Shown: one piece after another, positions 490 through 25,016 of the stretch
Layout of the letters: each line of letters begins with the position of its first letter
Position numbering within the stretch: the stretch's first letter is position 1
Source: Chloroflexota bacterium
GTDB taxonomy: Bacteria > Chloroflexota > Chloroflexia > DAOUBH01
DNA: 64,000 nt
Direction: 5' to 3'
Assembly (NCBI GenBank): GCA_034432775.1
Contig: DAOUBH010000022.1
Span: 27,170-91,169, forward strand
The notes under the pieces: generated by a model
Told to the model about the DNA's origin: nothing
Seen by the model: only the letters and a program-made list of their open reading frames with translations
The model's database searches: none
Translations under genes and position numbers: made by a program

Positions 490-1179
490 TTGCTTCCCAT
501 CAGTGACGAAATACGCGCCCGAACTTTACCCTTTGTGGAATACACCGTCATAGCCCTAAACGTACTGGTATTCCTCTATGAGGTGTCCCTCGGCCGGGGT
601 ATGCAAGCCTTCATCTACGGGTTCGGGGTAATTCCTGTCGAGATCGTCACAGGCGAACCGTTGCGCGGAGTTCCCAATCCAGTGCCTACCTACGCCACTA
701 TTTTCACCTCCATGTTTGTCCACGCAGGATGGCTGCATCTTCTGGGCAACATGCTCTACCTATGGATATTCGGCGACAACGTCGAAGACAACGTAGGCCA
801 CTTCGGATTCCTCCTCTTATACCTTTTCTCCGGCGCAGCAGGATCCTTTGCCCACATACTTCTCAACCCTGGATCCACCGTGCCAACCGTTGGAGCCAGC
901 GGCGCCATCTCTGGAGTTCTTGGCGCATACCTAGTGCTCTTTCCGTCCGGTCACATTCGATCGCTGGTGTTCATTCCGCCCGTCATAACCGTTGCCCGAA
1001 TTCCTGCCCTAATCTTCATAGGATTCTGGTTCCTAATGCAGTTCATGGGGGGCCTGTCTAGTTTGGAAAACCCTCAGGCCTCAGGCGTGGCCTTCTGGGC
1101 CCATGTTGGAGGCTTCTTGGCAGGTATATTATTGGCGAGCTTCCTACGGAAAAGGAGAAACTACGTATATTATGGGTAG
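490..1179 (+). CDS. rhomboid family intramembrane serine protease
   Basis: GASGAISGVLGAY (GxSG catalytic Ser) and AHVGGFLAG (catalytic His) motifs; several hydrophobic helices; TTG start. Confidence 0.8.
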   Translation: MLPISDEIRARTLPFVEYTVIALNVLVFLYEVSLGRGMQAFIYGFGVIPVEIVTGEPLRGVPNPVPTYATIFTSMFVHAGWLHLLGNMLYLWIFGDNVEDNVGHFGFLLLYLFSGAAGSFAHILLNPGSTVPTVGASGAISGVLGAYLVLFPSGHIRSLVFIPPVITVARIPALIFIGFWFLMQFMGGLSSLENPQASGVAFWAHVGGFLAGILLASFLRKRRNYVYYG

Positions 1180-3616: not shown

Positions 3617-3934
3617 AAACAGATAAAGCGCCAGCCATGCACCCCCTGTCGACCCAGCCCTTCCTGCTTACCCGTGCTGGCTGACTCCGACCAGGTTTCC
3701 CCACGGCGCCCAGGATTGCCCGCTTACCGTTGCTTCCTTCCGGACCTGGCGGGGTTCACGGGATCCTGCCGCGTAGGACCCAGCCTTCAACGTCGCCCGG
3801 CACGGGCAGTCCAACAAGAACCGGCCTCGAGGGGGACTTCGACCCCGCTACAGCGGATTGCGGGTACAGGGCACCGCTAGCTCCCCGTCTAGCATGGCTG
3901 GCATATCCATTATAACTGGACCCGCGGTCATCGG

Positions 3935-7345: not shown

Positions 7346-10023
<2,678 letters not shown>

Positions 10024-10031
10024 TTCGGCCG

Positions 10032-11612
10032 CTACTCGGGCCCAGCCGGCCGATCGATGAGGGAGGCGCAGGTCATCTCCGGGGCTGGGGGCAGAGCCAG
10101 CAACTCCAGAACAGTCAAAGTAACATCACAAAGCCGCCGAAGGGGAGGTCTCAAACGCACCTTCCGATAGGGGCTGTCCTCCGGGGCGACAAGTATAGCA
10201 GGAGCCGGGTTCATAGAGTGGGCAGTGTGAGGACCACCTGTCAGGGGATCTATCATCTGTTCGGCGTTTCCGTGGTCAGCGGTAACTACCAGTATCCCGC
10301 CCAGAGCCAGCGTGGCATCTACCACTCGACCAACGCCCTGATCCACAGCTTCGGCAGCCCTTTTAGCAGCTTCTATTACTCCTGTGTGGCCCACCATGTC
10401 ACAGTTGGCATAGTTTATGACGACGAAGTCGTACTTGCCCGAACGGATCCTCTCCACGGCCACATCGGTCACCTCGGGAGCGCTCATCTCTGGCTTCAAA
10501 TCGTAAGTGGCCACCTTGGGAGACGGAACTAACAGCCGGTCCTCTCCCGGGAAGGGCGTCTCGTAACCGCAGTTCAAGAAATACGTCACATGGGCATATT
10601 TCTCTGTCTCGGCCACGTGGAACTGGGTGAGCCCATGGTCGCTTATGATCTTTGCCAATGGGTTCTTTACCTCCAAAGATCTGAAGGCCACCAGAACGGG
10701 CAAACCCTCTTCGTACTCGGTCATCGTTACGAATAGTAGGTCCTCAAGAGGCTTCCCGCGATCGAACTCGTGGAAATCGGGCAGAACGAAGGCTTTCGTC
10801 AACTGCCTGGCCCTGTCAGCCCTGAAATTGAAATGTACCACCGCATCGCCGTCTCTCACCTGGCCTACAGGTTTCCCCGATGCGTCCAGAATGACACAGG
10901 GCACTATGAACTCGTCGGTAGTTCCTTCGCGATAAGAACGGATTATGGCCTCCTCCGCGCTCGGGGCGGTGCGACCCACACCATGAACTATAGCATCGTA
11001 AGCAAGCTTCACCCGGTCCCAACGCTTATCGCGGTCCATGGCATAGTACCGGCCAGACACCGACGCAATCCGACCTACATCGATTCTCGCCGTAGCTTCT
11101 TCCAGCTCCTTTACGAAGCCAAGGCCAGAATCCGGCGGCGTATCCCGCCCATCGGTAAAGGCATGCACGAATACCTTTCGGAGGCCAAACCTCGCCGCCA
11201 TATCGAGCAGTGCAAACAAATGACGGGAATGGCTGTGTACCCCGCCGTTGCCGATCAGGCCCATGAAGTGCAGCGCGGATTCCCTGGTACGCGCATGCTC
11301 CATGGCCTTGACCAACGCCTCGTTGGAATAGATAGTCCCGTCTTCAACAGCCCTATCTATCAGAGTGAGGTCCTGATACACGATGAAGCCGGCTCCGAGG
11401 TTCATGTGGCCGACCTCGGAATTGCCCATCTGTCCTTTGGGCAAGCCAACGGCTTCCTCGCAGGTCTTCAGCTCCGTACGAGGATACGAGGCCCAGAGGC
11501 GATCGAAATTGGGCGTGTTGGCCAGATAAATGGCATTTCCGGGCCCTGGGGCCGCCAGCCCCCAGCCATCAAGTACGACCAGCACTACCGGCCTATGTAA
11601 CCTTGCCTCCAT
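10032..11612 (-). CDS. gpmI: 2,3-bisphosphoglycerate-independent phosphoglycerate mutase
   Basis: VVLVVLDGWGL, MGNSEVGHMNLGAG, HGVGRTAPSAEEAI; 526 aa. Confidence 0.95.
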   Translation of the reverse strand: MEARLHRPVVLVVLDGWGLAAPGPGNAIYLANTPNFDRLWASYPRTELKTCEEAVGLPKGQMGNSEVGHMNLGAGFIVYQDLTLIDRAVEDGTIYSNEALVKAMEHARTRESALHFMGLIGNGGVHSHSRHLFALLDMAARFGLRKVFVHAFTDGRDTPPDSGLGFVKELEEATARIDVGRIASVSGRYYAMDRDKRWDRVKLAYDAIVHGVGRTAPSAEEAIIRSYREGTTDEFIVPCVILDASGKPVGQVRDGDAVVHFNFRADRARQLTKAFVLPDFHEFDRGKPLEDLLFVTMTEYEEGLPVLVAFRSLEVKNPLAKIISDHGLTQFHVAETEKYAHVTYFLNCGYETPFPGEDRLLVPSPKVATYDLKPEMSAPEVTDVAVERIRSGKYDFVVINYANCDMVGHTGVIEAAKRAAEAVDQGVGRVVDATLALGGILVVTADHGNAEQMIDPLTGGPHTAHSMNPAPAILVAPEDSPYRKVRLRPPLRRLCDVTLTVLELLALPPAPEMTCASLIDRPAGPE

Positions 11613-12298
11613 TCTTCGACCTCTCCTCGAAAACCCAGCCGTGCATTATACCCCACACTCACGAGAAGCCCGCCCAGCTGCCCGTGCGAATTTGGCCAGA
11701 ACCTTTGTGCAGCCGAGGCGAGCATACCTCCGGTAATACCTAGCAGAGCAAGAAGGGACAGCATTGAATCTTCCTGCTTGGGGAGATAAAACTAAACGCA
11801 AGGCTCAGTGTATGCCCCAGCCCACGTTCAAGTTCGGCCGTGCAGGCTAGAGCGACTAGCATTTTTTTCTCCAGTGGGTCCCACCCTCGGGCCTCATCGG
11901 CTGCGAGAATACCTTAAAAAATTCTAGGACGTGGCCTATCTTCCCCCAGCTAACAACTATCGTATCGGTATGTAGTTCCGCAGAATCTGAGCTCTTGGCG
12001 CGCGTACGCCCGTGTACGATTGAAGGGCAGTGCCTACTGCCAGACAAGTCAAGCACTGTCAGGGACCTGCACAGTTAACACGAGGGCAGGAAGACGAAAA
12101 CCGATGGACGTATAGGGTTCGCGGTACGGGCAGCCTCCGAGCTTCGAATGATACCTTTAACCCGTTATATACATTGGTATATTGCCGTTAAATTCTGACG
12201 CAATCTTAAAAGATGCTACGCATAATGAAACAAGTAGGCTTTTGCACTTTCAACTCTGGTACAAAGACTTATCATGCCACAGGCGGGAGTGGCGGAGC

Positions 12299-15061
12299 AT
12301 GTCCGTGGTGTTTAAACCGGAAGTGAAGTGGGTACCAAGTTACTGTTATCAATGCAACGCGGGCGGACCAGATCTATTGCGCGTTAAGGTAGTAGACGGG
12401 GTAGCAGTAGGACTAGAGGGCAACCTTGATTTTGCTAGTGTCCATCCAGGCGGGGCAAAAGTGTGCGTCAAAGCATATGGGCTAATTCAGAAACATTATA
12501 ACCCAAATCGCGTCAAGGCCCCGCTGAAACGCACGAATCCTAAAAAGGGTCTGGACGAGGACCCTGGTTTCGTAGAGATCACATGGGATGAAGCCATCGA
12601 ACTGTGGGCCCAGAAACTCCTTGAGGTCAGGAGTCGAGGCATAGTAGACGAGAACGGTTATCCACGTGTCGCCTTCGCTGAGGGGTCTGATGGTGTTTGC
12701 CCTTCGTATTATGGCACCCTGCCAGTGATTTTCGGTGGCCTCTCACAGGCTCTAGGGCTCCCTCCCGGGATCTGGGGACCTACCGAATTTACCATGGCGC
12801 AAGGGGGCGGCGTGAAGTGTTACCACACCGAGCATCTGCTTGGGGAGCTGTGGCACAAAGGCTTCACGTGTGCTCAAGATACCCCACTCTGTGATTACAT
12901 CATTGCCATTGGCAGAAGTGACGACACGTCCTTCGGCGTCACGGGAGCGAAGCGCCAGGCTGAGGCCAGAGCCAGGGGATGGAAAAGGGTCCAAGTAGAG
13001 CCACACCTATCGGTAACCGGAGCTACATCTGACCGATGGGTCCCCATAAGGCCCGAGACCGATCATGCATTTCTTTTCGCTATGATCCATGTTGTCCTTC
13101 ACGAAATGAATTGGGCTGAAGTGTGTGACATCCACTTCTTGAAAACGATGACCAATAGCTCCTATCTGGTTGCGCCCGATGGCTACTTTCTGCGAGACCC
13201 GGTGTCCGAAAAGCCGCTAGTGTGGGACACCGTGGACCGAGCCGCCAAACCCTTCGATAGGGACGTGAAGGATCCCGCACTTGAAGGTGAATACGAGGTC
13301 GCCGGGATCACCCTTGGCCCAGACTCCAAAAGAAGCAGATTCGACCGCGTTTCGGTCAAGCCAGCCTTTCAACTGCTCATAGAACACGTGAAGACGTACA
13401 CGCCGGAGTGGGCATCAGAGATCTGCGATGTTCCTCCGCAAACCATTAGGGAACTGACGCATGAGTTCATTAGCCATGCAAGAGTAGGAGCAACCATCAC
13501 CGTCGACGGCATTGAAATGCCCTATAGGCCAGTGTTCATTGCCCTCGGCAAGACCCAGAATAACGGATGGGGCTCCATGCAGTGCGTCTGGGCAGCCCAC
13601 GTTTTGCAAATGCTCGTCGGCTCGTTGGAAGTACCTGGGGGACACTTAGGGACCCGGGTTCTGTTCTCAGGCCCGCCCAGAAGAACAGCTGATGGATTTC
13701 TCGAGTATCCCTTCAACCCGACAGACAAGGAGAACTGGCGGTTTCCTCCTGGCCGTAGGGATGGTGTGCCATCCCTCTGTCCACTGACAGGACCTTTTCT
13801 GGGCCCCATGCATCTGGGGTGGAAATGGACCGTGGACCCACCTCCACACTGGCCGGCTCCGAGCGTACCCGACATATTGATCACCTACAAGGTGAACCCG
13901 GTCATCTCGCAGTTCGATACACCAACTATCGTGGAGGTACTTCGCAGGATCCCCTTCCATGTGGCGTTTGCCTATACCCTGGACGAAACAGCTTGGTTCG
14001 CGGATCTCGTGCTACCAGAAGATGGAGACCTGGAAGCACTGCAGGTTTTCCCCATCGGCGCTACAACCTTTATGGAGAACTTTTGGGAGCATGTCGGACT
14101 CGCCATAAAGCAGCCTGCAGTACCACGGGCGAATAACACGCGGAACATTACCGACATAGCGACCGACTTGGCGGAAAAACTAGGAATGCTGGCTGCCTAC
14201 AACGAGGCCCTAAACCACGGCGCCTTCCTTGGATTTGTCTTGAAGGATACCCCGCACGAATTACAGCCAGACAAGAAATACACAGCGGAAGAGATCTATG
14301 ACCGAATCTGTAAGGTAGCTACTTACAACCTCAGTAGGGGATCGGAGGAATTCGGATTGGAGTGGTTTAAGGAAAAGGGAGCCTTCTTCGTTCCTTTCCC
14401 CAAGGTCGGTCCAGGGATAAGCCTGGGCCCGATTTACATGCGTCCATGGTACCTTTACCCCTACATGCGCCAGTCTGGCATCCGCTTCGAGCTCCCCTAC
14501 CAGGAAAGGTTGAAGAGGATCGGTGAAGAGCTTCAAGCACGCATCAGCGAGGCCAAGATAGACTGGTGGCAGGCACAGGCACACGAATACCAGGCATTGC
14601 CGAAATGGCACAGTACCAGCACAATCATCGACGATGTTATTGCCAAACGTTACGGGAAAAACCCAAATGACTACCCATTTTGGCTTCTTGCTACCCGAAG
14701 CATGCAATATGCTTGGGGATCCAACATAGCAGTTCCGCAGATGCATGAAGTAGCCGAGCGCGTGTTGGGTCACACGTGGGTTCAGATGAGCACCCAAGCG
14801 GGCAGGCTTCTCGGAATTAAGGATGGGGACGAAGTGTGGATTGAGTCTGCATATGGCAAGGCGCGAGGGAGAGTTAAGCTGAGGGAGGGAATCCGAGCAG
14901 ATGTTGTGTTGACAACGCAGATGTATGGCCACGTGAAAACCCCGTTCGCTAAGGATCTCAGACTCCCAAACCTCAATCAGATAGCTCCAGCGCTAGTGGA
15001 GTTAACCGACGAAACTGGGGGTTCTAAGGATCATGTCAAAGTGAAGGTATATAAGCCCTAA
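12299..15061 (+). CDS. molybdopterin oxidoreductase catalytic subunit (DMSO reductase/MopB superfamily), no Tat signal
   Basis: ~920 aa; N-terminal C-x2-C-x3-G-x33-C (YCYQCNAGG...KVCVKAYG) at the position of the MopB FS0 cluster motif; no RRxFLK motif; ATG 12299 after GGGAG; long ORF from 12182 is likely upstream extension. Confidence 0.8.
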   Translation: MSVVFKPEVKWVPSYCYQCNAGGPDLLRVKVVDGVAVGLEGNLDFASVHPGGAKVCVKAYGLIQKHYNPNRVKAPLKRTNPKKGLDEDPGFVEITWDEAIELWAQKLLEVRSRGIVDENGYPRVAFAEGSDGVCPSYYGTLPVIFGGLSQALGLPPGIWGPTEFTMAQGGGVKCYHTEHLLGELWHKGFTCAQDTPLCDYIIAIGRSDDTSFGVTGAKRQAEARARGWKRVQVEPHLSVTGATSDRWVPIRPETDHAFLFAMIHVVLHEMNWAEVCDIHFLKTMTNSSYLVAPDGYFLRDPVSEKPLVWDTVDRAAKPFDRDVKDPALEGEYEVAGITLGPDSKRSRFDRVSVKPAFQLLIEHVKTYTPEWASEICDVPPQTIRELTHEFISHARVGATITVDGIEMPYRPVFIALGKTQNNGWGSMQCVWAAHVLQMLVGSLEVPGGHLGTRVLFSGPPRRTADGFLEYPFNPTDKENWRFPPGRRDGVPSLCPLTGPFLGPMHLGWKWTVDPPPHWPAPSVPDILITYKVNPVISQFDTPTIVEVLRRIPFHVAFAYTLDETAWFADLVLPEDGDLEALQVFPIGATTFMENFWEHVGLAIKQPAVPRANNTRNITDIATDLAEKLGMLAAYNEALNHGAFLGFVLKDTPHELQPDKKYTAEEIYDRICKVATYNLSRGSEEFGLEWFKEKGAFFVPFPKVGPGISLGPIYMRPWYLYPYMRQSGIRFELPYQERLKRIGEELQARISEAKIDWWQAQAHEYQALPKWHSTSTIIDDVIAKRYGKNPNDYPFWLLATRSMQYAWGSNIAVPQMHEVAERVLGHTWVQMSTQAGRLLGIKDGDEVWIESAYGKARGRVKLREGIRADVVLTTQMYGHVKTPFAKDLRLPNLNQIAPALVELTDETGGSKDHVKVKVYKP

Positions 15062-15082
15062 GACAAGGGGAGGGTACTTGCC

Positions 15083-15733
15083 GTGGCACGATGGGGAATG
15101 GCCATCGACCTCAGGAAATGCAACGGATGTCAGACGTGCACCGTAGCATGCAAGATCGAGAATTTCACCCCAAAGGGTTTGCTTTGGGGACAAGTTTACG
15201 ATTATGAGACCGGGCAGTATCCCACAGTCCAACGCCGCTTCCTTCCCGCCCTTTGTATGCACTGTGAAAGTCCGCCATGCAGAGACGTGTGCCCGACAGG
15301 CGCCACCAAAAAGAGAGAAGACGGAATCGTTTATGTCGATTATCAGAGGTGTACCGGTTGCCAGGCATGTGCCTTAGCCTGTCCGTACGAAGCGCGCTTC
15401 CTCTACACGGAACGGGATGGGTATTTTGACCGACGCAGAACCCCATACGAACAGTTCCCATACGAGTGGAGAGCACCATCGCAACGGTTTACGAACGGAA
15501 CCATGACGAAATGTACCTTCTGTATGCACCGGATAGATCAACACCCAAATAAGCGTCCAGGTATAGATCCGGAGGCCACACCTGCCTGCGTCGTTGCCTG
15601 TATCACCGGAGCACGGATCTTCGGTGATCTGGACGACTCAGAGAGCGAGATCAACAAGGTAATCCGGGAACGACGCGGCTTCACACTGCTGCCTGAGCTC
15701 GGGACTGGGCCTTCCGTGTATTACTTGCCCTAA
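15083..15733 (+). CDS. 4Fe-4S ferredoxin-type electron-transfer subunit of molybdopterin oxidoreductase
   Basis: Four Cys clusters: CNGCQTCTVACK, CMHCESPPCRDVCP, CTGCQACALACP, CTFCMH...CVVAC; GTG start 9 nt after GGAGG. Confidence 0.85.
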   Translation: MARWGMAIDLRKCNGCQTCTVACKIENFTPKGLLWGQVYDYETGQYPTVQRRFLPALCMHCESPPCRDVCPTGATKKREDGIVYVDYQRCTGCQACALACPYEARFLYTERDGYFDRRRTPYEQFPYEWRAPSQRFTNGTMTKCTFCMHRIDQHPNKRPGIDPEATPACVVACITGARIFGDLDDSESEINKVIRERRGFTLLPELGTGPSVYYLP

Positions 15734-15753
15734 AAGCGAAGCTCTAATAGGGT

Positions 15754-16605
15754 GTGTGGGAGGTAAAGGCAGTGATTTCCATCCATGGTCAGAGAAACTG
15801 GGGTTTCACGACAGCTCTGGCAATGTTCCTCGAGGGGAGCTGTGGCGCCACTACGGTAAGCGGAATACTTCTAGGCAATCTACCCATGGTAATACTTGGG
15901 GTAGCCCTCGGAATGGCAGCCGGCTTGATCCTTTTACTTGAGCTCGGAAATCCGAAAAATGCAATCTGGTTACTTGCAGGCATACGTCATGCTTGGATTT
16001 CGCGAGGTACTCTCCTACTACTGTTAGTCATTGTTTTTGGCCTTGCATACGCTCTCGTCGGCCTGCCAACTGTGGGCGCCCCGCCCGTCTTAAGCGTAGT
16101 CGCGGGTGTCACCGCTGGAATCGCAGGCCTCTTGCTGACACTGTACCCAGGGTTCCTGCTCGCTTCGTTCAAGCCCATACCGTTGTGGCATTCGGCCTTG
16201 TCGCCCATTCTCTCTTTCGGCATTAGCGCCCTAGGCGGTTTCGGCGTAACTTTGGTCATGTCCCCACTGGTAACTGTAAATGCAGTACAGATGACGATTC
16301 CTGCAGTGTCAGGTGCAGTGGTCTTTCAAGCCGTGGCGTGGTGGGCATTTATCGACACAGCGCTAAAAGGTAGCGTTACAGAATCCCACGGAGCTAGGGT
16401 GCTATTGGGGCTACCTGTCTTCTCAGCTGGGGCCATCGCGGTTGGCTTGGCATTACCTGGAGTAATCATGGTTTTAGCGTGGGCCGCAGGCGTTACATCA
16501 CTTCCGTTGTATGTCGTAGCAGGGGTATGTCTGCTTGCTGGAAGTCTAAGCGCTAGGTACGCCCTATTAAGGGCTGGTGTGCGATTGCGGTGGCAGCCGG
16601 CCTAG
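15754..16605 (+). CDS. integral membrane anchor subunit (NrfD/PsrC/DmsC-like) of molybdopterin oxidoreductase
   Basis: 283-aa protein with ~8 hydrophobic helices directly downstream of the catalytic and FeS subunits. Confidence 0.6.
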   Translation: MWEVKAVISIHGQRNWGFTTALAMFLEGSCGATTVSGILLGNLPMVILGVALGMAAGLILLLELGNPKNAIWLLAGIRHAWISRGTLLLLLVIVFGLAYALVGLPTVGAPPVLSVVAGVTAGIAGLLLTLYPGFLLASFKPIPLWHSALSPILSFGISALGGFGVTLVMSPLVTVNAVQMTIPAVSGAVVFQAVAWWAFIDTALKGSVTESHGARVLLGLPVFSAGAIAVGLALPGVIMVLAWAAGVTSLPLYVVAGVCLLAGSLSARYALLRAGVRLRWQPA

Positions 16606-17299
16606 CCTGGAACCGAAGGCAGCCTCAGCCTCCATTCTGCCGCGGGACACGCGAATGAGGCCAGGACTGTCCCGGGAGTTATATGGAAGCTAACGGAGGA
16701 TATCCGAGCAAATCCCCAGATCCATCAAACTAATAGATCATTAACCGGTGAGGCAAAGGGGTTCTTGCATCAGCCGGGCGCTCAGAATGGGGAGCCAGCA
16801 CCCTACTTGGCTCTGGTGCGGCTACTGATTGGTCTGAGGGGGTCTGACAGGTAGAGTATACCCTCTTCTACCCCCATCACATATCCTTCTTGCTGCTCAA
16901 TGGCCGATCTCCCCATAAACCAAGTACCGTAATCATGCATCACATCGAGACCATACCAGCCACGCCACGAGGTATCGCGATAGAGCCAAAGCCTAGGTAG
17001 CCGTCGATACACATCGGGGGAGGACTTTCCACGGGTTCTAATACGGACTCCGGTTGCTAAGGGTGAAACGGCTCACGGAGGGAGAGCCTCAGGCCAAGGC
17101 CATCCACACCAGTAGTGCAGATAGGGGTGCAGTTCACCAACCGTCGCTCAGCTCCTTCAAAGCAAGTTAAGGCGTCTCCATCGTCCTTGGCCCCGACATT
17201 GGGGCTCGAACTGAAAGGGATTGACCTCCATGATACAATCTACTGTGGAGTTCGACCCATACCTTTTCGCTAAAAACCCCAAGTCTAGGTAGATGGACT

Positions 17300-18082
17300 G
17301 TGTTGACCCACGCCTTTATCCAGATCCGCGGCCTCACTAAGGTCTATTTGTCAGACCACGGACAAGTGCTCGCCCTCGACGGCATAGACCTGGACATAGC
17401 AGAGAAGGAGTTCGCTTCCATCCTGGGACCCAGCGGCTGCGGCAAGAGCACCCTCATTATGCTCATAGCAGGCCTCATACGCCCCACATCGGGAAGCATA
17501 ACCATAAACGGCAGACAGATCGATGGTCCATACACTGATCTGGGGATAGTCTTTCAGCGGGACGTTCTCCTGGACTGGCGAAATGTACTGGACAACGTAT
17601 TGCTCCAGATCGAGATCCGCAGGCTGAAACGATCCGATTATGAGAAAGTTGCCCTTCAGCTCCTCGACAGGGTCGGTCTGGGCGAATTCACTACAGCCTA
17701 TCCCAGGGCCCTGTCGGGAGGCATGCGCCAACGGGTAGCCATCTGCAGGGCCCTTGTCCACGACCCGCCTCTCCTGCTTATGGATGAGCCCTTTGGAGCC
17801 CTCGACGCCCTCACTAGAGACCAGATGTCCCTAGATCTTATGCGCATCTGGGAACAGACCCATAAGACGGTACTCTTTGTGACCCACAGCATACCCGAGG
17901 CTATCTTCCTTTCCGACAGGATTATCGTCATGTCGCCGCGTCCAGGCCGCATCGTAGAAGACATCCGCATCGAGCTGCCCAAGCCGCGACGCTTGGCCGT
18001 GCGCGATACCCAGGACTTCGCCGACTATGATCGCCACATCCGGGAGATCTTCATGGCCCAGGGTGTGCTGGTCGAAGGATAG
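17300..18082 (+). CDS. ABC transporter ATP-binding protein (NitT/TauT family)
   Basis: Walker A GPSGCGKST, signature LSGGMRQR, Walker B LLLMDEPFGALD, H-loop VTHS. Confidence 0.85.
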   Translation: MLTHAFIQIRGLTKVYLSDHGQVLALDGIDLDIAEKEFASILGPSGCGKSTLIMLIAGLIRPTSGSITINGRQIDGPYTDLGIVFQRDVLLDWRNVLDNVLLQIEIRRLKRSDYEKVALQLLDRVGLGEFTTAYPRALSGGMRQRVAICRALVHDPPLLLMDEPFGALDALTRDQMSLDLMRIWEQTHKTVLFVTHSIPEAIFLSDRIIVMSPRPGRIVEDIRIELPKPRRLAVRDTQDFADYDRHIREIFMAQGVLVEG

Positions 18083-18102
18083 ACGTTTGGCAGGAGGAAT
18101 GT

Positions 18103-18930
18103 ATGGCTGAAGGTGTCACAGCTGTTAAGGTCGAGCAGAAACCACGGCCTCGCGCAAACCTTAAGGACTACTACTATCCCGTGGCAGCTGCGATCGCGTT
18201 CCTTCTCTTGTGGGAGGGAATTGTCCACCTGCTGAATATCAAGCCCTACCTGCTGCCAGCACCGTCAAACATCCTTCAAAAGCTGACCGGCCAGTGGGGA
18301 ACCATCTGGGACTACACGCTCGTCACCGGATTCGAGGTGTTGCTAGGCTTCCTGCTGAGCATAATCGTGGGCATACCGTTGGGCATGGTCATATTCTATG
18401 TAAAGGCCCTGGAGAGGGTTATCTATCCCTTTCTAGTGGCATCTCAGACTATCCCCAAGGTAGCCATCGCACCACTTTTGGTGATCTGGTTCGGTTTCGG
18501 TCTTACGCCCAAGGTGATCGTGGCCTTCTTGATAGCCTTCTTCCCCATAGTGGTCGATACTGTGGTAGGGCTGAAAAGCACCCCTCCAGAGATGATCTAT
18601 CTAGTAAGATCCATGGGAGCCAACAGGCTCCAGACCTTCCTGAAGATCAGTTTGCCCAATGCCCTCCCCAATATATTCGGCGGCTTGAAGGTCGCCATCA
18701 CTTTGGCGGTAGTGGGTGCTGTGGTGGGAGAGTTCATAGGTGCCGATAGGGGCCTCGGTTACCTCCTTGTGGTCGCCAACGGCTACCTCGATACCCCCCT
18801 GGTCTTCGCTGGGATCATTGTCCTCAGCCTCATGGGCATATTTCTCTTCTTCGTCATTGAGATCATCGAACGCCTCCTAATGCCTTGGAGATCCGAAGAG
18901 CAGACGGAGATAGTCAGGGGGACCATGTGA
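18103..18930 (+). CDS. ABC transporter permease (NitT/TauT family)
   Basis: Polytopic membrane protein; EAA-like region RSMGANRLQTFLKISLPNALP. Confidence 0.85.
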   Translation: MAEGVTAVKVEQKPRPRANLKDYYYPVAAAIAFLLLWEGIVHLLNIKPYLLPAPSNILQKLTGQWGTIWDYTLVTGFEVLLGFLLSIIVGIPLGMVIFYVKALERVIYPFLVASQTIPKVAIAPLLVIWFGFGLTPKVIVAFLIAFFPIVVDTVVGLKSTPPEMIYLVRSMGANRLQTFLKISLPNALPNIFGGLKVAITLAVVGAVVGEFIGADRGLGYLLVVANGYLDTPLVFAGIIVLSLMGIFLFFVIEIIERLLMPWRSEEQTEIVRGTM

Positions 18931-20321
18931 GGCAGAAACACCAGCAGGAAGCAGATCTGCTCGTCCTGGGGGAATGGATCCTCCTGTCAGCAAACGATGC
19001 CCTACAACGGGGAGCCATAGCGGTACGGGACGGCCTTATAGTCGATGTTGGTCCCCAACGAGATGTTATGGAACGGTACCGCGCCAAGAGGGTCATCGGC
19101 GGCGCCGATAGGATCGTTGCTCCCGGGCTAATAAATACCCATACCCATCTCTTTCAGACCTTCCTCCGCGGATTGGGCGAAGGGCTGCCATTGCGCACCT
19201 GGGTCGAGCGAGTAACTACCCCTGCTGCCCTTGCCATGACCTGGGAAGACGCCTACCTGTCGGCTGCCCTGGGCCTCATCGAGGCCCTTCACTCCGGAAC
19301 TACGGCTGTCTTCGAGTATGGGTACGCCTTTCCAGATCCATCCCTGCACGAGGCCACCTTGAAAGCTTTCCTCGATGTGGGAGTGCGTGGCTGGTTGGGG
19401 ATAGGTGTCAACGATGCTGGGATTGAGTTCGGCGTCCATCCGGCATTCATTCAGACCGTCGATGAGGCTCTGAAGAAGGTGGACGATTTGCGTGTCGCGA
19501 TGGCCAGGCTTGGCCAGATGCCGGTCCAGTTAGCCCTCGTCTCGGGAAGCATCAGAGGCCTATCTTCCCAGGGCGTCAGGGCCTTCCATGGGTACGCAGA
19601 GGCCAACGGTCTACTCTATTCCCTCCACCTCAAAGAGATACCCCAGGACGACGAAACAGCCCTGCTGCGTTTCGGTACCAGGGCAGTGCCGTGGCTCGCT
19701 GATTGCGGGGTCCTCAAGCCTAATCTCCTCGCTGTCCACTGCGTGTGGCTCAACCAGGAGGACATAGACCTCCTGGCTGAGGGCCGCTCCTCTGTGTCCC
19801 ACAACCCCGTCAGCAACATGTATCTAGGTGCGGGGATAGCTCCAGTGGCAGAGTTGCTGCAACGTGGGATCGCAGTAGGCTTAGGCACCGACGGGCCAGC
19901 AAGCAACAACAGCATGGACATGCTCCAGACGCTGAAGTTCTCCATACTGGGACAGCGAGCCCGAAAGGCCTCGCCCGATATCATAACCTCGAGGGACGGC
20001 TTCCGCATGGCTACGGAGGACGCTGCCCGGGCCTTGGGGGTCGAGGGTCTTCTTGGACGCATCGCTCCTGGATATGTGGCCGATATTGTTGTTTTCCGCA
20101 CCGATACCTTCCAGGGAGTCCCTTGCCATGACCCCTACGCTACGTTAGCCTTCTCAGCCGGTTGTGGCTCCGTAGAGACCGTGATGGTCGGAGGGCGGAT
20201 CGTTCTAGAGGAGGGTCTGGTCAAGACCCTCGATGAAGCCGACATCGTGGCTAGGGCATCGACAGCAGCCAAGGATCTGGTCCAGCGAGCAGGCATACCC
20301 GCAGGAGTGTTCGTGAGGTGA
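18927..20321 (+). CDS. metal-dependent amidohydrolase (cytosine/guanine deaminase or chlorohydrolase-like)
   Basis: APGLINTHTHL metal-binding HxH, later HCVW and GLGTDGPASNN; GTG start overlaps permease stop (GTGA). Confidence 0.75.
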   Translation: MRQKHQQEADLLVLGEWILLSANDALQRGAIAVRDGLIVDVGPQRDVMERYRAKRVIGGADRIVAPGLINTHTHLFQTFLRGLGEGLPLRTWVERVTTPAALAMTWEDAYLSAALGLIEALHSGTTAVFEYGYAFPDPSLHEATLKAFLDVGVRGWLGIGVNDAGIEFGVHPAFIQTVDEALKKVDDLRVAMARLGQMPVQLALVSGSIRGLSSQGVRAFHGYAEANGLLYSLHLKEIPQDDETALLRFGTRAVPWLADCGVLKPNLLAVHCVWLNQEDIDLLAEGRSSVSHNPVSNMYLGAGIAPVAELLQRGIAVGLGTDGPASNNSMDMLQTLKFSILGQRARKASPDIITSRDGFRMATEDAARALGVEGLLGRIAPGYVADIVVFRTDTFQGVPCHDPYATLAFSAGCGSVETVMVGGRIVLEEGLVKTLDEADIVARASTAAKDLVQRAGIPAGVFVR

Positions 20322-21345
20322 TCTCGGGCATCACCATGAATCCCGATGCCGATCCCCAGGTGTTGAAAGCCATAGCCCGACAGGTGGAGGAGCTCGGATT
20401 CTCCTACTGCTACGTTGCCGACCAAGGCCTGAGTCGCGACGTATATGTGACACTGTCCAACCTGGCCGCCTCCACCACAAGCCTACGGTTGGGCCCTGGA
20501 ATCACTCACCCCTATGTGCGGCACCCGGCCGCCACAGCCGTGGCCATAGCGACCCTAGATGAGCTATCCCACCACAGGGCCTTCCTGGGCATAGGAGCCG
20601 GTGGCACCCGCGCCCTCGCCCCCTCAACATCGACAGAAGAGAGCCACTCCGCGCCTGCACCGAGGCAGTGGAAATTGCGCGACGGCTCTGGACCGGCCAA
20701 CCCGTAGACTTTTCCGGCCGCTACTTTCAGCTTAGAGGCGCCCGCATCAACTTTCCTTGCCGGCACAATATAGAGGTACACTGGGCTGCCCGGGGTCCCA
20801 AGATGCTACGCCTGGGCGGTGAACTGGCTGATGTAGTTTTCCTCCATGGAAACCCCCACAGCGAGATAGCTGAAGCTGTGCGCCATGTTCGGGCGGGAGC
20901 CCTTGAGGCCCAACGGAAAGTGAGGATTCACCTGGCACTGCCAATAATCTATGATCAGGCCTCCTTCGAGAGCGGACGCTTAAGGACAGCTTGCAGGTTG
21001 GTCGATCTCACTGAGGATGCCAGGAGGAGGCTGGACATATCCACACAGCTCCATTCCAGGATCAGGGAGCTGGTGCTATCGTCGCAGCTCGAGTCCGCTG
21101 CACAGCTTGTGGAGCCTGAACTGGTCAGGCAATTTGTAGTCGACGCCACAGACCCGGAGTCGCTTCGCGATCTGGCCAGGACCATAGCTTCTCTCAACTT
21201 GGACGGCTTTATAGTGGAGATCAGTAACCCGTACCTGGCTGCAACTATACTTCCCGTGGCCCATCAGGTCATCGCCAAGACCATGCAGCTGCTCAAGGAC
21301 CAAACTACTGGTAGTCCACAAACCTATCAGGGAGGTGTCCCATGA
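20318..21345 (+). pseudogene. F420-dependent LLM-class (luciferase-like/Mer-like) oxidoreductase, reading frame broken by apparent -1 frameshift in a C5 run (20619-20623)
   Basis: N-terminal frame ...LGPGITHPYVRHPAATAVAIATLDELSHHRAFLGIGAGG (Mer-like); C-terminal part continues in another frame as PLNIDRREPLRACTEAVEIARRLWTGQPVDFSG...; one extra C would restore GAGGTRALAPLNIDRREPL. Confidence 0.6.
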
Positions 21346-22424
21346 GGCGTTTCAGAGGCTTACGGTGGTATCAGATCCTCACACTACTCGTGCTAGGGCT
21401 CTTTCTAGTTGCCTGCAGCCAGCCAACACCGGCACCCCCGGCCGGAGCCCAGGCAAGCCCAGCGCCCAGCCCAGCACAGCCTACCCCGACAGCCAAGCCG
21501 GCACCCGACAAGGTCACCCTCAGGCTCTCATGGCGGTGGAAGGCCGAGTTTGCACCCCTGGTCCTTGCTGACGACAAAGGCTTCTTCAAGGAAGAGAACA
21601 TTGAAGTGCAGCTCCTCGAAGGCAAGGGGTCTGGTGATGTAGTCCCCCTCATAGCCAACAAGACCGACACCTTCGGCTACCTTAATCTCACCACGGTGGC
21701 GATAAGCACAGCTAAAGGTCTACCCGTAAAGGTTGTGGCCGGTCTTATGGCTAAGAACCCTTCAGCTCTGGCCTTCTTCGCTGAGAAGAACATAAAGCAA
21801 CCCAAAGACCTAGAGGGCAAATCCATTGCCCTGACACCGGGTGAGGCCTTCGCCGTCATTTGGCCAGCTTTCGCTAAGAAATGGGATATCGATACCTCCA
21901 AAGTCACCACCGTCAACCTCGACCCCAGCGTTAAGAATCAGGCGTTCCTGGAAGGACGCATCGATGTACTTCCTGTCTATGTGAACAACGAGCTGCCTCA
22001 GATCCGCTACCAGGCCAAGAAGCCCATCGACATCCTCACGCCAGCCGATTGGGGCTTCAACACCATAGCCAACGGGATCATCACCCACGTGGACACCATC
22101 AAAGAAAAACCCGACCTGGTACGCAGGTTCGTCCGCGCCGTAGCTAAGGGTTACAAGTACGCAATCGACCATCCAGACGAGGCAGTAGCCGCCGTGTCCA
22201 AGCGGTCAGATGCCCTTGCCAGCCAGCCGAAGGAGGTGCTCCTCGAACAGGTCACAATGACCTTGGACTTTATGTACAGTCCCAACAACAAGGGCAAGCC
22301 CATCGGATGGATGGCCGATGAAGACTGGACCGCTACCATCGACCAACTCTTCCAGACCGGCGCCATCGATAAAAAGCTTCCCAACGACACCTTCTACACG
22401 AACGATTTCGTACCCAAGGAGTGA
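21342..22424 (+). CDS. ABC transporter substrate-binding lipoprotein (NMT1/THI5/SsuA-like)
   Basis: Signal peptide with lipobox LFLVAC-S, Pro/Ala-rich linker, periplasmic binding protein body; start overlaps LLM stop. Confidence 0.8.
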   Translation: MRRFRGLRWYQILTLLVLGLFLVACSQPTPAPPAGAQASPAPSPAQPTPTAKPAPDKVTLRLSWRWKAEFAPLVLADDKGFFKEENIEVQLLEGKGSGDVVPLIANKTDTFGYLNLTTVAISTAKGLPVKVVAGLMAKNPSALAFFAEKNIKQPKDLEGKSIALTPGEAFAVIWPAFAKKWDIDTSKVTTVNLDPSVKNQAFLEGRIDVLPVYVNNELPQIRYQAKKPIDILTPADWGFNTIANGIITHVDTIKEKPDLVRRFVRAVAKGYKYAIDHPDEAVAAVSKRSDALASQPKEVLLEQVTMTLDFMYSPNNKGKPIGWMADEDWTATIDQLFQTGAIDKKLPNDTFYTNDFVPKE

Positions 22425-22439
22425 ACTAACTAGAGGCCA

Positions 22440-22826
22440 GTGGAAAAGAGGTTCGTTAATCCAGCCGAACTGCATGCTCCCTTGGGAGCTGGCTGCCACG
22501 TAGCTGTGGCCGGCAGGACCATCTACGTGGCAGCCCAGCTTCCCTTGGACAAAGACGGTAACCTCGTCGGGCCCGGCGACCCTGTGGCTCAGGCCGAGCA
22601 GGTGTTCCGAAATCTGCAAGCAGCCCTTCGGGCCGTGGATGCCAACCTGGGGGATGTCGTCAAACTCACAACATATCTGAGAGACCTGGAGCATCGCCCC
22701 TTGGTCATGGAAGTACGTAATAGGTTCTTCGGTAGCCACCGCGCCCCGAGCACCCTGGCCCTGGTCGTAGACCTCCCGGTGCCGGGGGCTCTCCTCCAGA
22801 TCGACGCTATAGCCGTGAAGGACTGA
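22440..22826 (+). CDS. RidA/YjgF/Rid-family protein (paralog 1)
   Basis: 128 aa; RidA core (...IYVAAQLPLDKDGNLVGPGDPVAQAEQVFRNL...LLQIDAIAV). Confidence 0.85.
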   Translation: MEKRFVNPAELHAPLGAGCHVAVAGRTIYVAAQLPLDKDGNLVGPGDPVAQAEQVFRNLQAALRAVDANLGDVVKLTTYLRDLEHRPLVMEVRNRFFGSHRAPSTLALVVDLPVPGALLQIDAIAVKD

Positions 22827-22828
22827 TC

Positions 22829-23227
22829 ATGTGGGCCCGTAAAACTATTTCGCCCCCACAGAACCCGAGGCCCACCAGTTACTACTCCCATGGAGTCCTT
22901 GCAGGTCCGTGCCTCTATACTGCTGGCCAGACCTCCAGGGACCCCCACGGAAACCTTGTGGGGTCGGACAGCATAACTCTTCAGGCTGCCCAAGCTCTCC
23001 GCAACCTGAACAACGTACTGAACGAAGCAGGCATGACACCTTCCGACATCGTGTTCCTTCGTGTGTTCCTCAGGCGAGCCGAAGACTTTGAGGCTGTTTC
23101 GCAGGCCCTGAGGGCCTTCTTGGGCAGCCACACCCCTGCTATCACCGTAGCCATCGTAGAAGGGTTAGCATACCCCGAATACCTTCTGGAGATAGAGGCC
23201 ATAGCCGCAGCAGGGGACCCGCCATGA
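22829..23227 (+). CDS. RidA/YjgF/Rid-family protein (paralog 2)
   Basis: 132 aa; ...LYTAGQTSRDPHGNLVGSDSITLQAAQALRNL...LLEIEAIA. Confidence 0.85.
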   Translation: MWARKTISPPQNPRPTSYYSHGVLAGPCLYTAGQTSRDPHGNLVGSDSITLQAAQALRNLNNVLNEAGMTPSDIVFLRVFLRRAEDFEAVSQALRAFLGSHTPAITVAIVEGLAYPEYLLEIEAIAAAGDPP

Positions 23228-23607
23228 AGCAGCGGATCTCAGTACCGTCCATACATCGACCGACCACCTATTACTCTCATGCCATCGTAGTAGACGGGTG
23301 GGTGTACACGGCCGGCCAGGCTCCGCACCGTCCCGACGGAAGTGTCTGGGAGCCATCGGACCCTGAGGGCCAAATTCGCCAGGTATGGGAGAACATGCGC
23401 GAAGTCCTCGAGGCCGCTGGCTCGAATCCTGAGAATATCCTTCGCCTCGTCGTGCTGCTCAAGGACAGGGACCTCGTGCCTCTCTTCTGGAAAGTCTCCA
23501 GCGATTACTTGGGGACTTGCCGCCCGGCTACATCGCTGGCCGTGGTGAAGGGTATGGCCGATACCCGCTATCTAATAGAGATGGAGGCCATTGCGCTGTG
23601 CCGCTGA
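23224..23607 (+). CDS. RidA/YjgF/Rid-family protein (paralog 3)
   Basis: 127 aa; ...VYTAGQAPHRPDGSVWEPSDPEGQIRQVWENM...LIEMEAIA; ATGA overlap with paralog 2. Confidence 0.85.
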   Translation: MKQRISVPSIHRPTTYYSHAIVVDGWVYTAGQAPHRPDGSVWEPSDPEGQIRQVWENMREVLEAAGSNPENILRLVVLLKDRDLVPLFWKVSSDYLGTCRPATSLAVVKGMADTRYLIEMEAIALCR

Positions 23608-23622
23608 GCTTCCCAGCTCAGC
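23603..23622 (+). terminator. candidate stem-loop (gctgagc-ttccca-gctcagc) at convergent gene junction
   Basis: Perfect 7-bp inverted repeat overlapping the RidA-3 stop; weak T-tract only. Confidence 0.25.
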
Positions 23623-23702
23623 TCTTCGCACATCGCTATAAGGCTTACCCAGATCGCCGAGTGAACACAACTACGCACGGGGGAGCAGCACTGTTCTCCT
23701 CG

Positions 23703-25016
23703 CTAGTCCCCCTGGCACAGGACCTCTAGATCTTCCCAGAAGCCAGGATACGAGATATTCACGCACTGAGGGTCCGAGATCGAAGTCTCCCCGTGGGCCA
23801 CCAGACCTGCTACGGCCAGGGCCATGGCCATCCTATGATCTCCGTAGCTGTTCACAGCTGCCCCTCTGAGCTTCGCTGGTCCATAGATGCGGAGACCATC
23901 GGGCAACAGATCTATCTTAGCTCCCATGCGGCCCAGCTCCGTGGCTACAGCCAGCAGTCTATCGGTTTCCTTGTAGCGCAGTTCCTGGGCACCCCGGATG
24001 GAACTTACCCCTTCCGCAGCACACATAGCCACGGCCAGGATCGGCACCTCGTCGATTAACCGGGGGACCTCTTCAGGCACAATATCCGTTGCTCGTAACG
24101 TGCTACTAACAACGCGTAGATCTGCCAAGGGCTCCCCGCCTGTAGTCCTCAAGTTATTAGTCGTCACCTGGCCGCCCATCCTGCGCAGCACATCCACTAC
24201 ACCTGCACGAGTAGGGTTAACACCTGTGCCAAGCAGCTCAATATCTGCGTCGGAATGTATGCACCCTGCCACGAGCCAGAAGGCTGCCGATGAGATATCG
24301 TTGGGAACTACCACAGACAAAGGCTGCAAATCCTTCCCACCTCTCACGTAGATCGAGCCATCCTCGGACCGCAGGTCGGCGCCCATGGATCGGAGCATGC
24401 GCTCGGTATGGTCCCTTGAGGCTGTCTTCCCATATATCACTGTCTCGCCGGAGGCCATAAGGCCGGCCAGCAGCAGGGCAGACTTCACCTGTGCTGAGGC
24501 CACGGGCAGCTCATAGGATATAGCCTTGAGGTCGCCCCCCATTACAGCTATGGGAAGTCTTTCACCTCCCTGGCGTCCCCAGATGCGGGCACCCATAGAC
24601 CTAAGGGGAGCCACTACCCTGCCCATGGGTCGCGAACGAAGCGAGGCATCGCCAGTTAGCACCGCGAATAAGGGCTGGGCGGAGAGCATACCCAGCACCA
24701 GACGAGCCGTCGTGCCCGAATTGCGGGCGTCCAGTACGTCTTGGGGTTCCTGTAGCCCCTGCAGGCCCACCCCATGGACCCTCACAATCCAACGTCGGGA
24801 AGACTTGGCAACTACTTCGAGGGTCACCCCGAGGTGCTCTAGAATTTTCATGGTAGCCAAGCAGTCATCCCCGGGCAGAAAGTTCTCGACTAGGCTCTCA
24901 CCAACAGCCAGGGCTGGCAACAGAAGTGCCCTGTGAGATATCGATTTGTCTGGGGGCACTTCAACCCTACCTTTCAGGCCCGAGGGCGGCCGCACAACCT
25001 TGATGTCCCCACTCAT
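23703..25016 (-). CDS. aroA: 3-phosphoshikimate 1-carboxyvinyltransferase (EPSP synthase)
   Basis: N-terminus GRVEVPPDKSISHRALLL, later LGTGVNPTRAG; 437 aa. Confidence 0.95.
   Translation of the reverse strand: MSGDIKVVRPPSGLKGRVEVPPDKSISHRALLLPALAVGESLVENFLPGDDCLATMKILEHLGVTLEVVAKSSRRWIVRVHGVGLQGLQEPQDVLDARNSGTTARLVLGMLSAQPLFAVLTGDASLRSRPMGRVVAPLRSMGARIWGRQGGERLPIAVMGGDLKAISYELPVASAQVKSALLLAGLMASGETVIYGKTASRDHTERMLRSMGADLRSEDGSIYVRGGKDLQPLSVVVPNDISSAAFWLVAGCIHSDADIELLGTGVNPTRAGVVDVLRRMGGQVTTNNLRTTGGEPLADLRVVSSTLRATDIVPEEVPRLIDEVPILAVAMCAAEGVSSIRGAQELRYKETDRLLAVATELGRMGAKIDLLPDGLRIYGPAKLRGAAVNSYGDHRMAMALAVAGLVAHGETSISDPQCVNISYPGFWEDLEVLCQGD

Follow-up and report, generated by a model that had tools for sequence, protein, structure and literature searches.

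Three Arg-less Rid paralogues at the end of a conserved eight-gene cassette of Chloroflexi, a candidate mixed trimer

Proteins of the Rid (YjgF/YER057c/UK114) superfamily are among the most widespread small proteins, and their known activity is restricted to the branches that contain a particular arginine. This residue, Arg105 of RidA, is catalytic and binds the carboxylate of the substrate. In the pocket of AtRidA one subunit gives Arg105, Ser106, residue 107 and Lys73, and the neighbouring subunit gives Glu120/Glu122, the Tyr17/Ser18 loop and Ser30 (PMC4960622). Rid proteins without the arginine have been termed 'mysterious' (PMC4433059): published work finds no imine deaminase activity in them, and in experiments both an Arg-to-Ala RidA and natural Arg-less Rids were without deaminase activity (PMC4433059, PMC7221256). 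Rid4 and Rid7 have Trp in place of Arg105 (Niehaus et al. 2015, PMC4433059), and the gene of Y. pestis Y3550, an Arg-less protein similar to Rid5/6 in which deaminase function is absent, adjoins the gene of an active RidA (PMC7221256). Several Rid-related systems involve three units. Fused 3x-RidA proteins, for example EF_0115 of Enterococcus faecalis, have been interpreted as trimers whose units are covalently joined (Niehaus et al. 2015, PMC4433059), and cyanuric acid hydrolase (AtzD, the Toblerone fold) was derived from three concatenated YjgF-type genes according to Peat et al. (PMC3758960). The active site of AtzD lies in a central barrel with Ser-Lys dyads, and barbiturase is a ring-opening amidase of the same type (PMC3758960). 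Finally, RutC is the 3-aminoacrylate deaminase of the E. coli rut pyrimidine-utilisation operon (PMC8113886). Here we compare with these systems a locus of a Chloroflexota bacterium, located in a stretch of 64,000 nucleotides (hereafter the window; GenBank assembly GCA_034432775.1, contig DAOUBH010000022.1, positions 27,170 to 91,169 of the forward strand), in which three Rid genes follow one another:

22440..22826, + strand: RidX1 (X1), Rid-fold protein of 128 aa with a GTG start (Pfam PF01042, E 2.1e-22)
22829..23227, + strand: RidX2 (X2), Rid-fold protein of 132 aa (Pfam PF01042, E 6e-26)
23224..23607, + strand: RidX3 (X3), Rid-fold protein of 127 aa (Pfam PF01042, E 6.7e-21)

These are real, clearly diverged Rid-fold genes, and none of them encodes a non-Rid fold. 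Scores of 79.8, 91.3 and 75.0 bits with PF01042 (Ribonuc_L-PSP; cutoff 27.3) place X1, X2 and X3 in the Rid superfamily. The matches extend from profile positions 3–13 to position 120 of 121, and PF01042 is the sole Pfam family that matches any of the three at E up to 0.01. Each protein also finds 42–50 solved Rid chains at E<1e-3 (best E ~1e-15). All three genes are intact in the window, free of stops and frameshifts, and each lies in another reading frame than its neighbours and ends at a stop of its own, so that three frames are used. The start of X2 follows the stop of X1 after 2 nt, and the X2 stop and the X3 start overlap by 4 nt (ATGA). The original prediction, made from the letters of the window, had described three consecutive Rid genes of 127–132 aa at this place as diverged paralogues and not as recent copies. 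Both points hold, the first by the ORFs and their PF01042 matches and the second by pairwise identities of 34% (X1/X2), 30% (X1/X3) and 35% (X2/X3). The common motifs that it listed are roughly right: YTAGQ occurs in X2 (LYTAGQ) and X3 (VYTAGQ) but X1 reads IYVAAQ, and GNLVG is present in X1 and X2 but not in X3. The C-terminal motif is IEAIA, MEAIA and IDAIA, respectively.

Arg105 is absent from all three proteins. We tabulated the pocket columns, in E. coli RidA numbering, for 13 X1, 15 X2 and 15 X3 orthologues (43 sequences; the X3 alignment, A1, holds 16 orthologues). The numbering of the E. coli RidA reference in the family alignment agrees with the positions of PARS, Tyr17 and Glu120 and with the alignments to PDB entries, which were made with HMMER for X1 (2b33), X2 (2dyy and 5v4f) and X3 (5yu2 and 1xrg). 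The P-A-R-S motif that contains Arg105 is aligned to A-P-S-T in X1, P-A-I-T in X2 and P-A-T-S in X3. At the Arg105 column Ser is found in 13 of 13 X1 orthologues (HRAPSTL in the window) and a hydrophobic residue, namely Leu, Ile, Met or Val, in 15 of 15 X2 orthologues (Ile in the window, within TPAIT), while all 15 X3 orthologues have Val, Ile, Thr or Ala (Thr in the window, within RPATS). Trp, the mark of Rid4 and Rid7, was found at this column in none of the 43 sequences. A displaced catalytic Arg, the one in HRAPS of X1, was considered and rejected: wider relatives read P-A-S-T aligned to P-A-R-S, which makes Ser the equivalent of Arg105. The upstream Arg of X1, at position –3, lies on the opposite face of the strand, and T. 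maritima TM0215 (2b33, HRPARS) has this Arg as well.

Other pocket positions are kept in a family-dependent manner. X2 conserves the YYSH motif together with Glu120/Glu122, and X3 shows little or no variation in PTTYYSH, AGQAPH, Glu120 and the Trp that occupies the Asn88 column. In X1 of the clade to which the window belongs, Tyr17 is changed to Gly, Ser30 to Ala and Glu120 to Gln. His at the column of RidA Gln19 is a derived state shared by the three families. Residues specific to one family are Ser105, Met88 and Ala31 in X1, the hydrophobic residue 105 and Thr33/Arg35 in X2, and Trp88 and Ala33/Pro34/His35 in X3. The variable residue in place of Arg, with Glu120 and Tyr17 kept in X2, X3 and most X1, would agree in qualitative terms with Rid5/Rid6, but sequence similarity points to the RidA branch. 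The best profile match is TIGR00004 (RidA subfamily) with 65.7, 70.4 and 57.6 bits for X1, X2 and X3, below its cutoff of 106.25; TIGR03610 (RutC) gives 47.0, 50.8 and 39.6 bits, versus an equivalog cutoff of 169.1. The original prediction suggested three distinct reactive-intermediate handling steps, with the Arg needed for imine hydrolysis as the residue to be checked. Since this Arg is missing from X1, X2, X3 and every orthologue, the scores stay below the cutoffs and published Arg-less Rids lack imine deaminase activity, three handling steps in the RidA sense are unlikely.

Orthologues were collected by exact-sequence look-ups, one genome scan and one metagenome scan. About 15 distinct lineages have one-to-one orthologues of X1, X2 and X3, and the named carriers are all metagenome-assembled genomes of Chloroflexota (Anaerolineae Bin_81R and Ch132, one of Anaerolineaceae, and Chloroflexi DBS2-1.bin152). 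The order X1-X2-X3 is found at every trio locus, with gaps of –4 to +13 bp between X1 and X2 and –25 to +22 bp between X2 and X3 across lineages. The three families are well separated: each trio gene scores at least 195 bits with the hidden Markov model of its own family, versus 55–127 bits for cross-family or outside matches. X1 orthologues are 59–78% identical, and the ratio of non-synonymous to synonymous substitution rates (omega, dN/dS), calculated from pairs with unsaturated dS, is 0.04–0.17 per gene, which indicates purifying selection on X1, X2 and X3. Tandem Rid arrays had been called uncommon, and the related loci support this. The X2 profile retrieved 80 metagenome loci, in which the true X2 orthologues all lie in arrays and ∼70 other Rid relatives are solitary. 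Public annotation presents the trio orthologues as 'RidA family protein' or 'reactive intermediate/imine deaminase', labels which are probably wrong in functional terms.

The ancestry of the three genes is more complicated than a local triplication. In a neighbour-joining tree X1, X2 and X3 are each monophyletic (bootstrap 93, 76 and 63, respectively), with X2 and X3 as weakly supported sisters (56), and all three fall within one Arg-less radiation apart from canonical RidA. X1 clusters in this tree with solitary Ser-type proteins and with domains of one fused protein, although deep nodes are weak. It is ∼50% identical to solitary Ser-type Rid proteins versus 30–34% to X2 and X3. The proposed duplication followed by specialisation can thus be retained in part: these are old Rid paralogues, each under purifying selection and with orthologues in ∼15 lineages, but a triplication in place is too simple, because X1 is nearer to solitary Ser-type Rids than to X2 and X3. 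Many solitary Ser-type relatives of X1 carry signal peptides. The nearest relatives of X1 and X2 outside the cassette described below are Ser-type (P-A-S-T) Rids of 146–167 aa with signal-peptide-like N-terminal extensions (P0052, P0060, P0072, P0090, P0003 and P0024). The sources of these Ser-type relatives are soil metagenomes and a Luteimonas genome, and the N-termini may mean that the proteins are exported.

X1–X3 are not only ancient and individually conserved, they also form the end of an eight-gene cassette of Anaerolineae and other Chloroflexi, in the order ABC ATPase, permease, amidohydrolase, luciferase-like (LLM) oxidoreductase, binding protein, X1, X2 and X3. The five genes that precede the trio in the window are:

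17300..18082, + strand: ABC transporter ATP-binding subunit of NitT/TauT type, the first cassette gene (PF00005, E 1.7e-31; NCBIfam TauB/SaoA/NtrCD-like, below cutoff)
18103..18930, + strand: ABC transporter permease of NitT/TauT type (PF00528, E 3.4e-32; NCBIfam SaoP/TauC-like, below cutoff)
18885..20321, + strand: amidohydrolase of the TRZ/ATZ / nucleobase-deaminase branch (PF01979, Amidohydro_1, E 2.7e-51)
20318..21345, + strand: LLM oxidoreductase, F420-dependent Mer-like, frameshifted (PF00296 on the downstream fragment)
21342..22424, + strand: periplasmic substrate-binding lipoprotein of NMT1/THI5 type, belonging to the ABC transporter of the cassette (PF09084, E 7e-53; PDB 4nmy, 7e-23, and 3ix1, 1e-18)

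The cassette is collinear in every long locus (L004, L009, L013/L019, L014, L015 and L016), so the trio is co-inherited with the upstream operon, and its suggested tie to an upstream pathway is borne out. The cassette travels as a block, since the flanking genes vary between lineages. In the window and in L013, iPGM lies upstream and aroA downstream. In one Anaerolineae lineage (L009, L010, L014) a PAS-HisKA sensor kinase and an OmpR-type response regulator are located upstream (1138–3475), while trpF on the opposite strand, followed by a psuG-like Indigoidine_A gene and a PfkB kinase (psuK; pseudouridine catabolism), is located downstream (∼10376–13050). The latter flanks may hint at regulation and at a nucleoside/pyrimidine theme.

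Enzymes of the cassette give some idea of the chemistry. The amidohydrolase, which probably begins further downstream than the listed TTG, has the motifs HxH at residues 86–88 and HxxE at residues 248–251, and its PDB matches are the methylthioadenosine/S-adenosylhomocysteine deaminase 4f0r (5.6e-54), AtzA (atrazine chlorohydrolase), 8-oxoguanine deaminase and TrzN. For the LLM protein the best NCBIfam and PDB matches are F420-dependent methylene-tetrahydromethanopterin reductases, and no RutA-like model or structure is among its matches in either database. The nearest solved relatives of the binding protein include ThiY, which binds formylaminopyrimidine. No gene for a pyridoxal-phosphate (PLP) enzyme or an amine oxidase is present within the cassette in any lineage examined. 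The most economical reading of the cassette would be that an amino-substituted N-heterocycle is imported, deaminated and reduced.

It should be noted that the LLM gene of the window is interrupted. A C5 run at 20619–20623 is short of 1 nt, and this splits the gene into two frames. One added C restores an ORF of 342 aa with 60% identity to the intact 344-aa orthologue in L004, which tblastn maps to two frames. The assembly could be in error at this homopolymer, or the gene could really have become a pseudogene very recently. The neighbouring binding protein shares 94% of its amino acids with the L004 orthologue at ∼77% nucleotide identity, versus 86% of amino acids for the ABC ATPase, 60–66% for the enzymes and 54–56% for X2/X3. 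This constraint is unusually strong for a binding protein. A recent transfer of the gene was considered as well and rejected, given the DNA identity of ∼77%.

Some loci deviate from the common arrangement. On a 790-kb ENA contig (L012) a true X1 is directly followed by an X3-like gene; X2 is absent, and the pair lies outside the cassette. At 9001–9781 and 9830–10792 of this contig the Rid pair is preceded by genes for a Rieske/VanA-type oxygenase and for an enzyme of the MR_MLE type. The gene directly downstream is an LLM orthologue (48% identical) in convergent orientation, so the link between Rid and LLM genes is retained in this two-gene variant. Its vicinity also contains a divergent NMT1-type ABC transporter, an Amidohydro_2 enzyme and a second LLM gene. 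On a short metagenome contig (L025, 1517–2761) another amidohydrolase, with 27% identity to that of the cassette, comes after the trio, which suggests a rearranged cassette variant. In L014 (ENA contig_63948) the amidohydrolase, BtpA and the X2 orthologue are split. We did not count the broken X2 as a gene loss, because this contig looks like a noisy long-read assembly.

Upstream of the cassette no riboswitch or RNA leader was found, and the sole Rfam match in the window is located elsewhere:

3635–3897, − strand: bacterial large signal recognition particle (SRP) RNA (Rfam RF01854, 195 bits)

The gap of ∼700 bp upstream of the cassette (16606–17299) has no convincing ORF and no Rfam match, and its DNA is not conserved with L004 or L013. 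A single sigma-70-like site is seen at 17211–17239, and such sites are no commoner there than in shuffled sequence. A scan of 16400–23900 for promoters and terminators likewise gave counts not above those of shuffled sequence, so spacing and synteny are the only basis for the operon boundaries. Before the gap, on the same strand (12182–16605), there are genes for a PhsA/QrcB-like molybdopterin oxidoreductase (959 aa), a 4Fe-4S protein (216 aa) and a polytopic membrane protein (283 aa) that has no Pfam or NCBIfam match. This set looks like a three-subunit molybdoenzyme complex and is absent from the otherwise syntenic L013.

What do three Arg-less Rids do together? We give a probability of about one half to the reading that X1, X2 and X3 form one mixed heterotrimer. 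It appears to be the most likely arrangement because Rid proteins form trimers and bind their ligands where neighbouring subunits meet, and the strict co-inheritance of the three genes, their fixed order and their tight coupling seem easier to reconcile with a single protein of several subunits than with three separate enzymes. The three proteins would be made together and would assemble into a pseudo-symmetric trimer, in which the three pockets between subunits are not equivalent. Such a trimer would correspond, without fusion, to the common Rid proteins with three fused domains. In the pathway outlined above, the amidohydrolase would deaminate the imported amino-substituted N-heterocycle (pyrimidine-, purine-, pterin- or triazine-like), the F420-dependent LLM enzyme would reduce it, and the Rid assembly would act on the resulting intermediate. 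Because the Arg that clamps the carboxylate is absent, neither a 2-iminoacid nor 2-aminoacrylate is expected as this intermediate, which is more likely to be a neutral enamine, imine or amide, either cyclic or ring-opened. A weak hint comes from the clade of the window, where the changes of X1 on the Glu120/Tyr17 face (Y17G, S30A, E120Q) coincide with a change of X2 on the opposite, Lys73 face (R to F or A). These changes would share one interface only in a mixed trimer.

The fused Rid proteins provide a parallel. Among the best 150 representatives matched by the X3 profile, with 1.84 billion searched, ∼111 are fused three-domain Rids, mostly Arg-less and ∼380–410 aa long (P0165–P0313), and there are also two-domain forms and one five-domain form. 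Two of them could be seen in their context, on short contigs, and have unrelated neighbours there (a TPP enzyme, an MFS transporter, a HEAT-repeat protein). Sequence search returned no solved structure of a fused 3x-Rid, all PDB matches being single-domain chains. As the fused proteins include no orthologue of the trio, they serve as an analogy and not as Rosetta-stone proof.

Several points weigh against a mixed trimer. The X1/X2 co-change in the clade of the window is a single evolutionary event, and the salt-bridge columns Lys73/Glu122 are compatible with homo- and hetero-assembly alike. No orthologous X1-X2-X3 fusion was found with the X3 profile among the 1.84 billion representatives, and no heteromeric Rid assembly is reported in the literature searched. 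X2 is dispensable somewhere, as L012 has X1 and the X3-like gene only. As for the pathway, all NCBIfam matches of the neighbouring enzymes are below equivalog cutoffs, and the LLM frameshift may mean that the cassette is not fully functional in this genome.

Among the alternatives, three independent homotrimeric Rid enzymes, each acting on a different intermediate or step of the cassette pathway, survive best. This is the model of the original prediction without RidA chemistry, and we regard it as somewhat unlikely. It agrees with the strongly conserved pocket residues that each of X1, X2 and X3 has of its own, and with the solved Rid chains matched, which are all single-domain and are described as homotrimers (PMC4960622, PMC4433059). 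The interface salt-bridge columns would permit self-assembly, and L012 makes do with two of the three genes. However, separate pathway enzymes are more often shuffled, lost or replaced, whereas in every cassette lineage (∼15) the trio genes occur 1:1:1, do not change their order and overlap or almost adjoin. Moreover, the fused three-domain Rids, with equally diverged domains, show that mixed trimers are common in the family.

A non-catalytic trio, mixed or not, could bind a metabolite or cofactor in order to sequester or channel it, or could chaperone or regulate the amidohydrolase or the LLM enzyme. We consider this improbable, even though the catalytic Arg is gone from X1, X2 and X3, Arg-less Rids have no assigned activity (PMC4433059, PMC7221256) and chaperone-like and ligand-binding behaviour is reported for Rid members (PMC4433059). 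The low omega and the invariant polar pocket residues (His19 in all three, Glu120 in X2 and X3, YYSH, His35 and Trp88 in X3) fit precise chemistry, though specific binding would leave the same signal.

Ordinary RidA-type enamine/imine deaminases, redundant or with slightly different preferences for 2-iminoacids, that protect PLP enzymes are what the public labels of the orthologues imply, and TIGR00004 is indeed the best profile match. This explanation is very improbable all the same: Arg105 is missing from X1–X3 and all orthologues, the scores fall far from the cutoffs (TIGR00004 58–70 versus 106 bits, RutC 40–51 versus 169 bits), no PLP enzyme or amine oxidase is in the cassette, and Arg-to-Ala RidA and natural Arg-less Rids are inactive (PMC4433059, PMC7221256). 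Recent local duplicates or decaying copies without separate function, an idea to which the frameshifted LLM neighbour might lend itself, are refuted by the orthology and selection data (30–35% identity between X1, X2 and X3, one-to-one orthologues in ∼15 lineages, omega 0.04–0.17 and three intact genes).

If the mixed trimer of X1, X2 and X3 is real, it would be the first documented heteromeric Rid assembly. It would also show, in living organisms, the transition by which duplicated genes become fused domains, as proposed for cyanuric acid hydrolase and as seen in 3x-Rid proteins. A bolder version of this reading, which is unlikely, is that X1–X3 are the first natural heterotrimeric Rid, an unfused intermediate between YjgF/RidA homotrimers and fused pseudo-trimers such as 3x-Rid, chorismatase and Toblerone-fold amidases, and catalyse a new reaction in an undescribed F420-dependent N-heterocycle pathway of Anaerolineae. 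The site of the reaction would be the three non-equivalent Arg-less pockets or the central barrel of the heterotrimer. A reduced intermediate of pyrimidine, purine, pterin or triazine type might be hydrolysed or have its ring opened there, and the pathway could be catabolic or salvage. A heterotrimer with such a reaction would give an Arg-less Rid clade its first function. The conserved partners of the trio (the ThiY-like binding protein, the amidohydrolase of TRZ/ATZ/deaminase type and the F420-dependent Mer-like reductase) define a small set of testable substrates. No description of the gene cluster was found in the literature searched. The locus presents an operonic, ordered trio of Arg-less Rid paralogues together with an undescribed F420/amidohydrolase/ThiY-like cassette in Chloroflexi.

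Comparison with the known systems shows where the locus stands. Like the Arg-less Rid4–Rid7 proteins, X1–X3 have the Rid fold without Arg105 and largely keep Glu120 and Tyr/Phe17 (X2, X3 and most X1). In contrast to Rid4 and Rid7, they have residues other than Trp in place of Arg105, and both profile and PDB comparisons put them closest to the RidA subfamily. X1 resembles a minority of RidA-like proteins in which Ser replaces Arg. Y3550 is similar to the trio in that it adjoins another Rid gene.

The rut operon and the cassette both combine Rid, an LLM enzyme, a hydrolase and a transporter, in the case of rut for N-heterocycle catabolism. The cassette differs from rut in having three Arg-less Rids instead of one Rid, RutC scores of 40–51 versus 169 bits, and an LLM enzyme of the F420-dependent Mer-like kind. 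Its hydrolase belongs to the amidohydrolase superfamily, unlike RutB, which is an isochorismatase-family enzyme.

For AtzD/barbiturase and the chorismatases FkbO/Hyg5 an origin from three concatenated YjgF-type units, with a pseudo-threefold protein as the outcome, has been proposed, while the trio is encoded by three separate Rid genes. AtzD acts after TRZ/ATZ-type amidohydrolases in s-triazine breakdown, and the cassette too has a TRZ/ATZ-like amidohydrolase. At the same time, no match of X1–X3 to the AtzD/barbiturase family profile was found in Pfam at E up to 0.01, and with the chorismatase profile (FkbO/Hyg5, TIGR04444) X2 alone gives a match, at E 0.002 and 17.5 bits versus a cutoff of 325. 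The resemblance of the trio to these enzymes is therefore one of architecture and context only.

Fused three-domain Rids are a large, uncharacterised class. Like the trio they have three Rid modules, are mostly Arg-less and in many cases show inter-domain identity of 29–50%. They differ from it in that their domains score 40–120 bits, versus at least 195 bits within the trio families, and do not follow the X1-X2-X3 order, while in the trio the three modules are encoded by separate genes.

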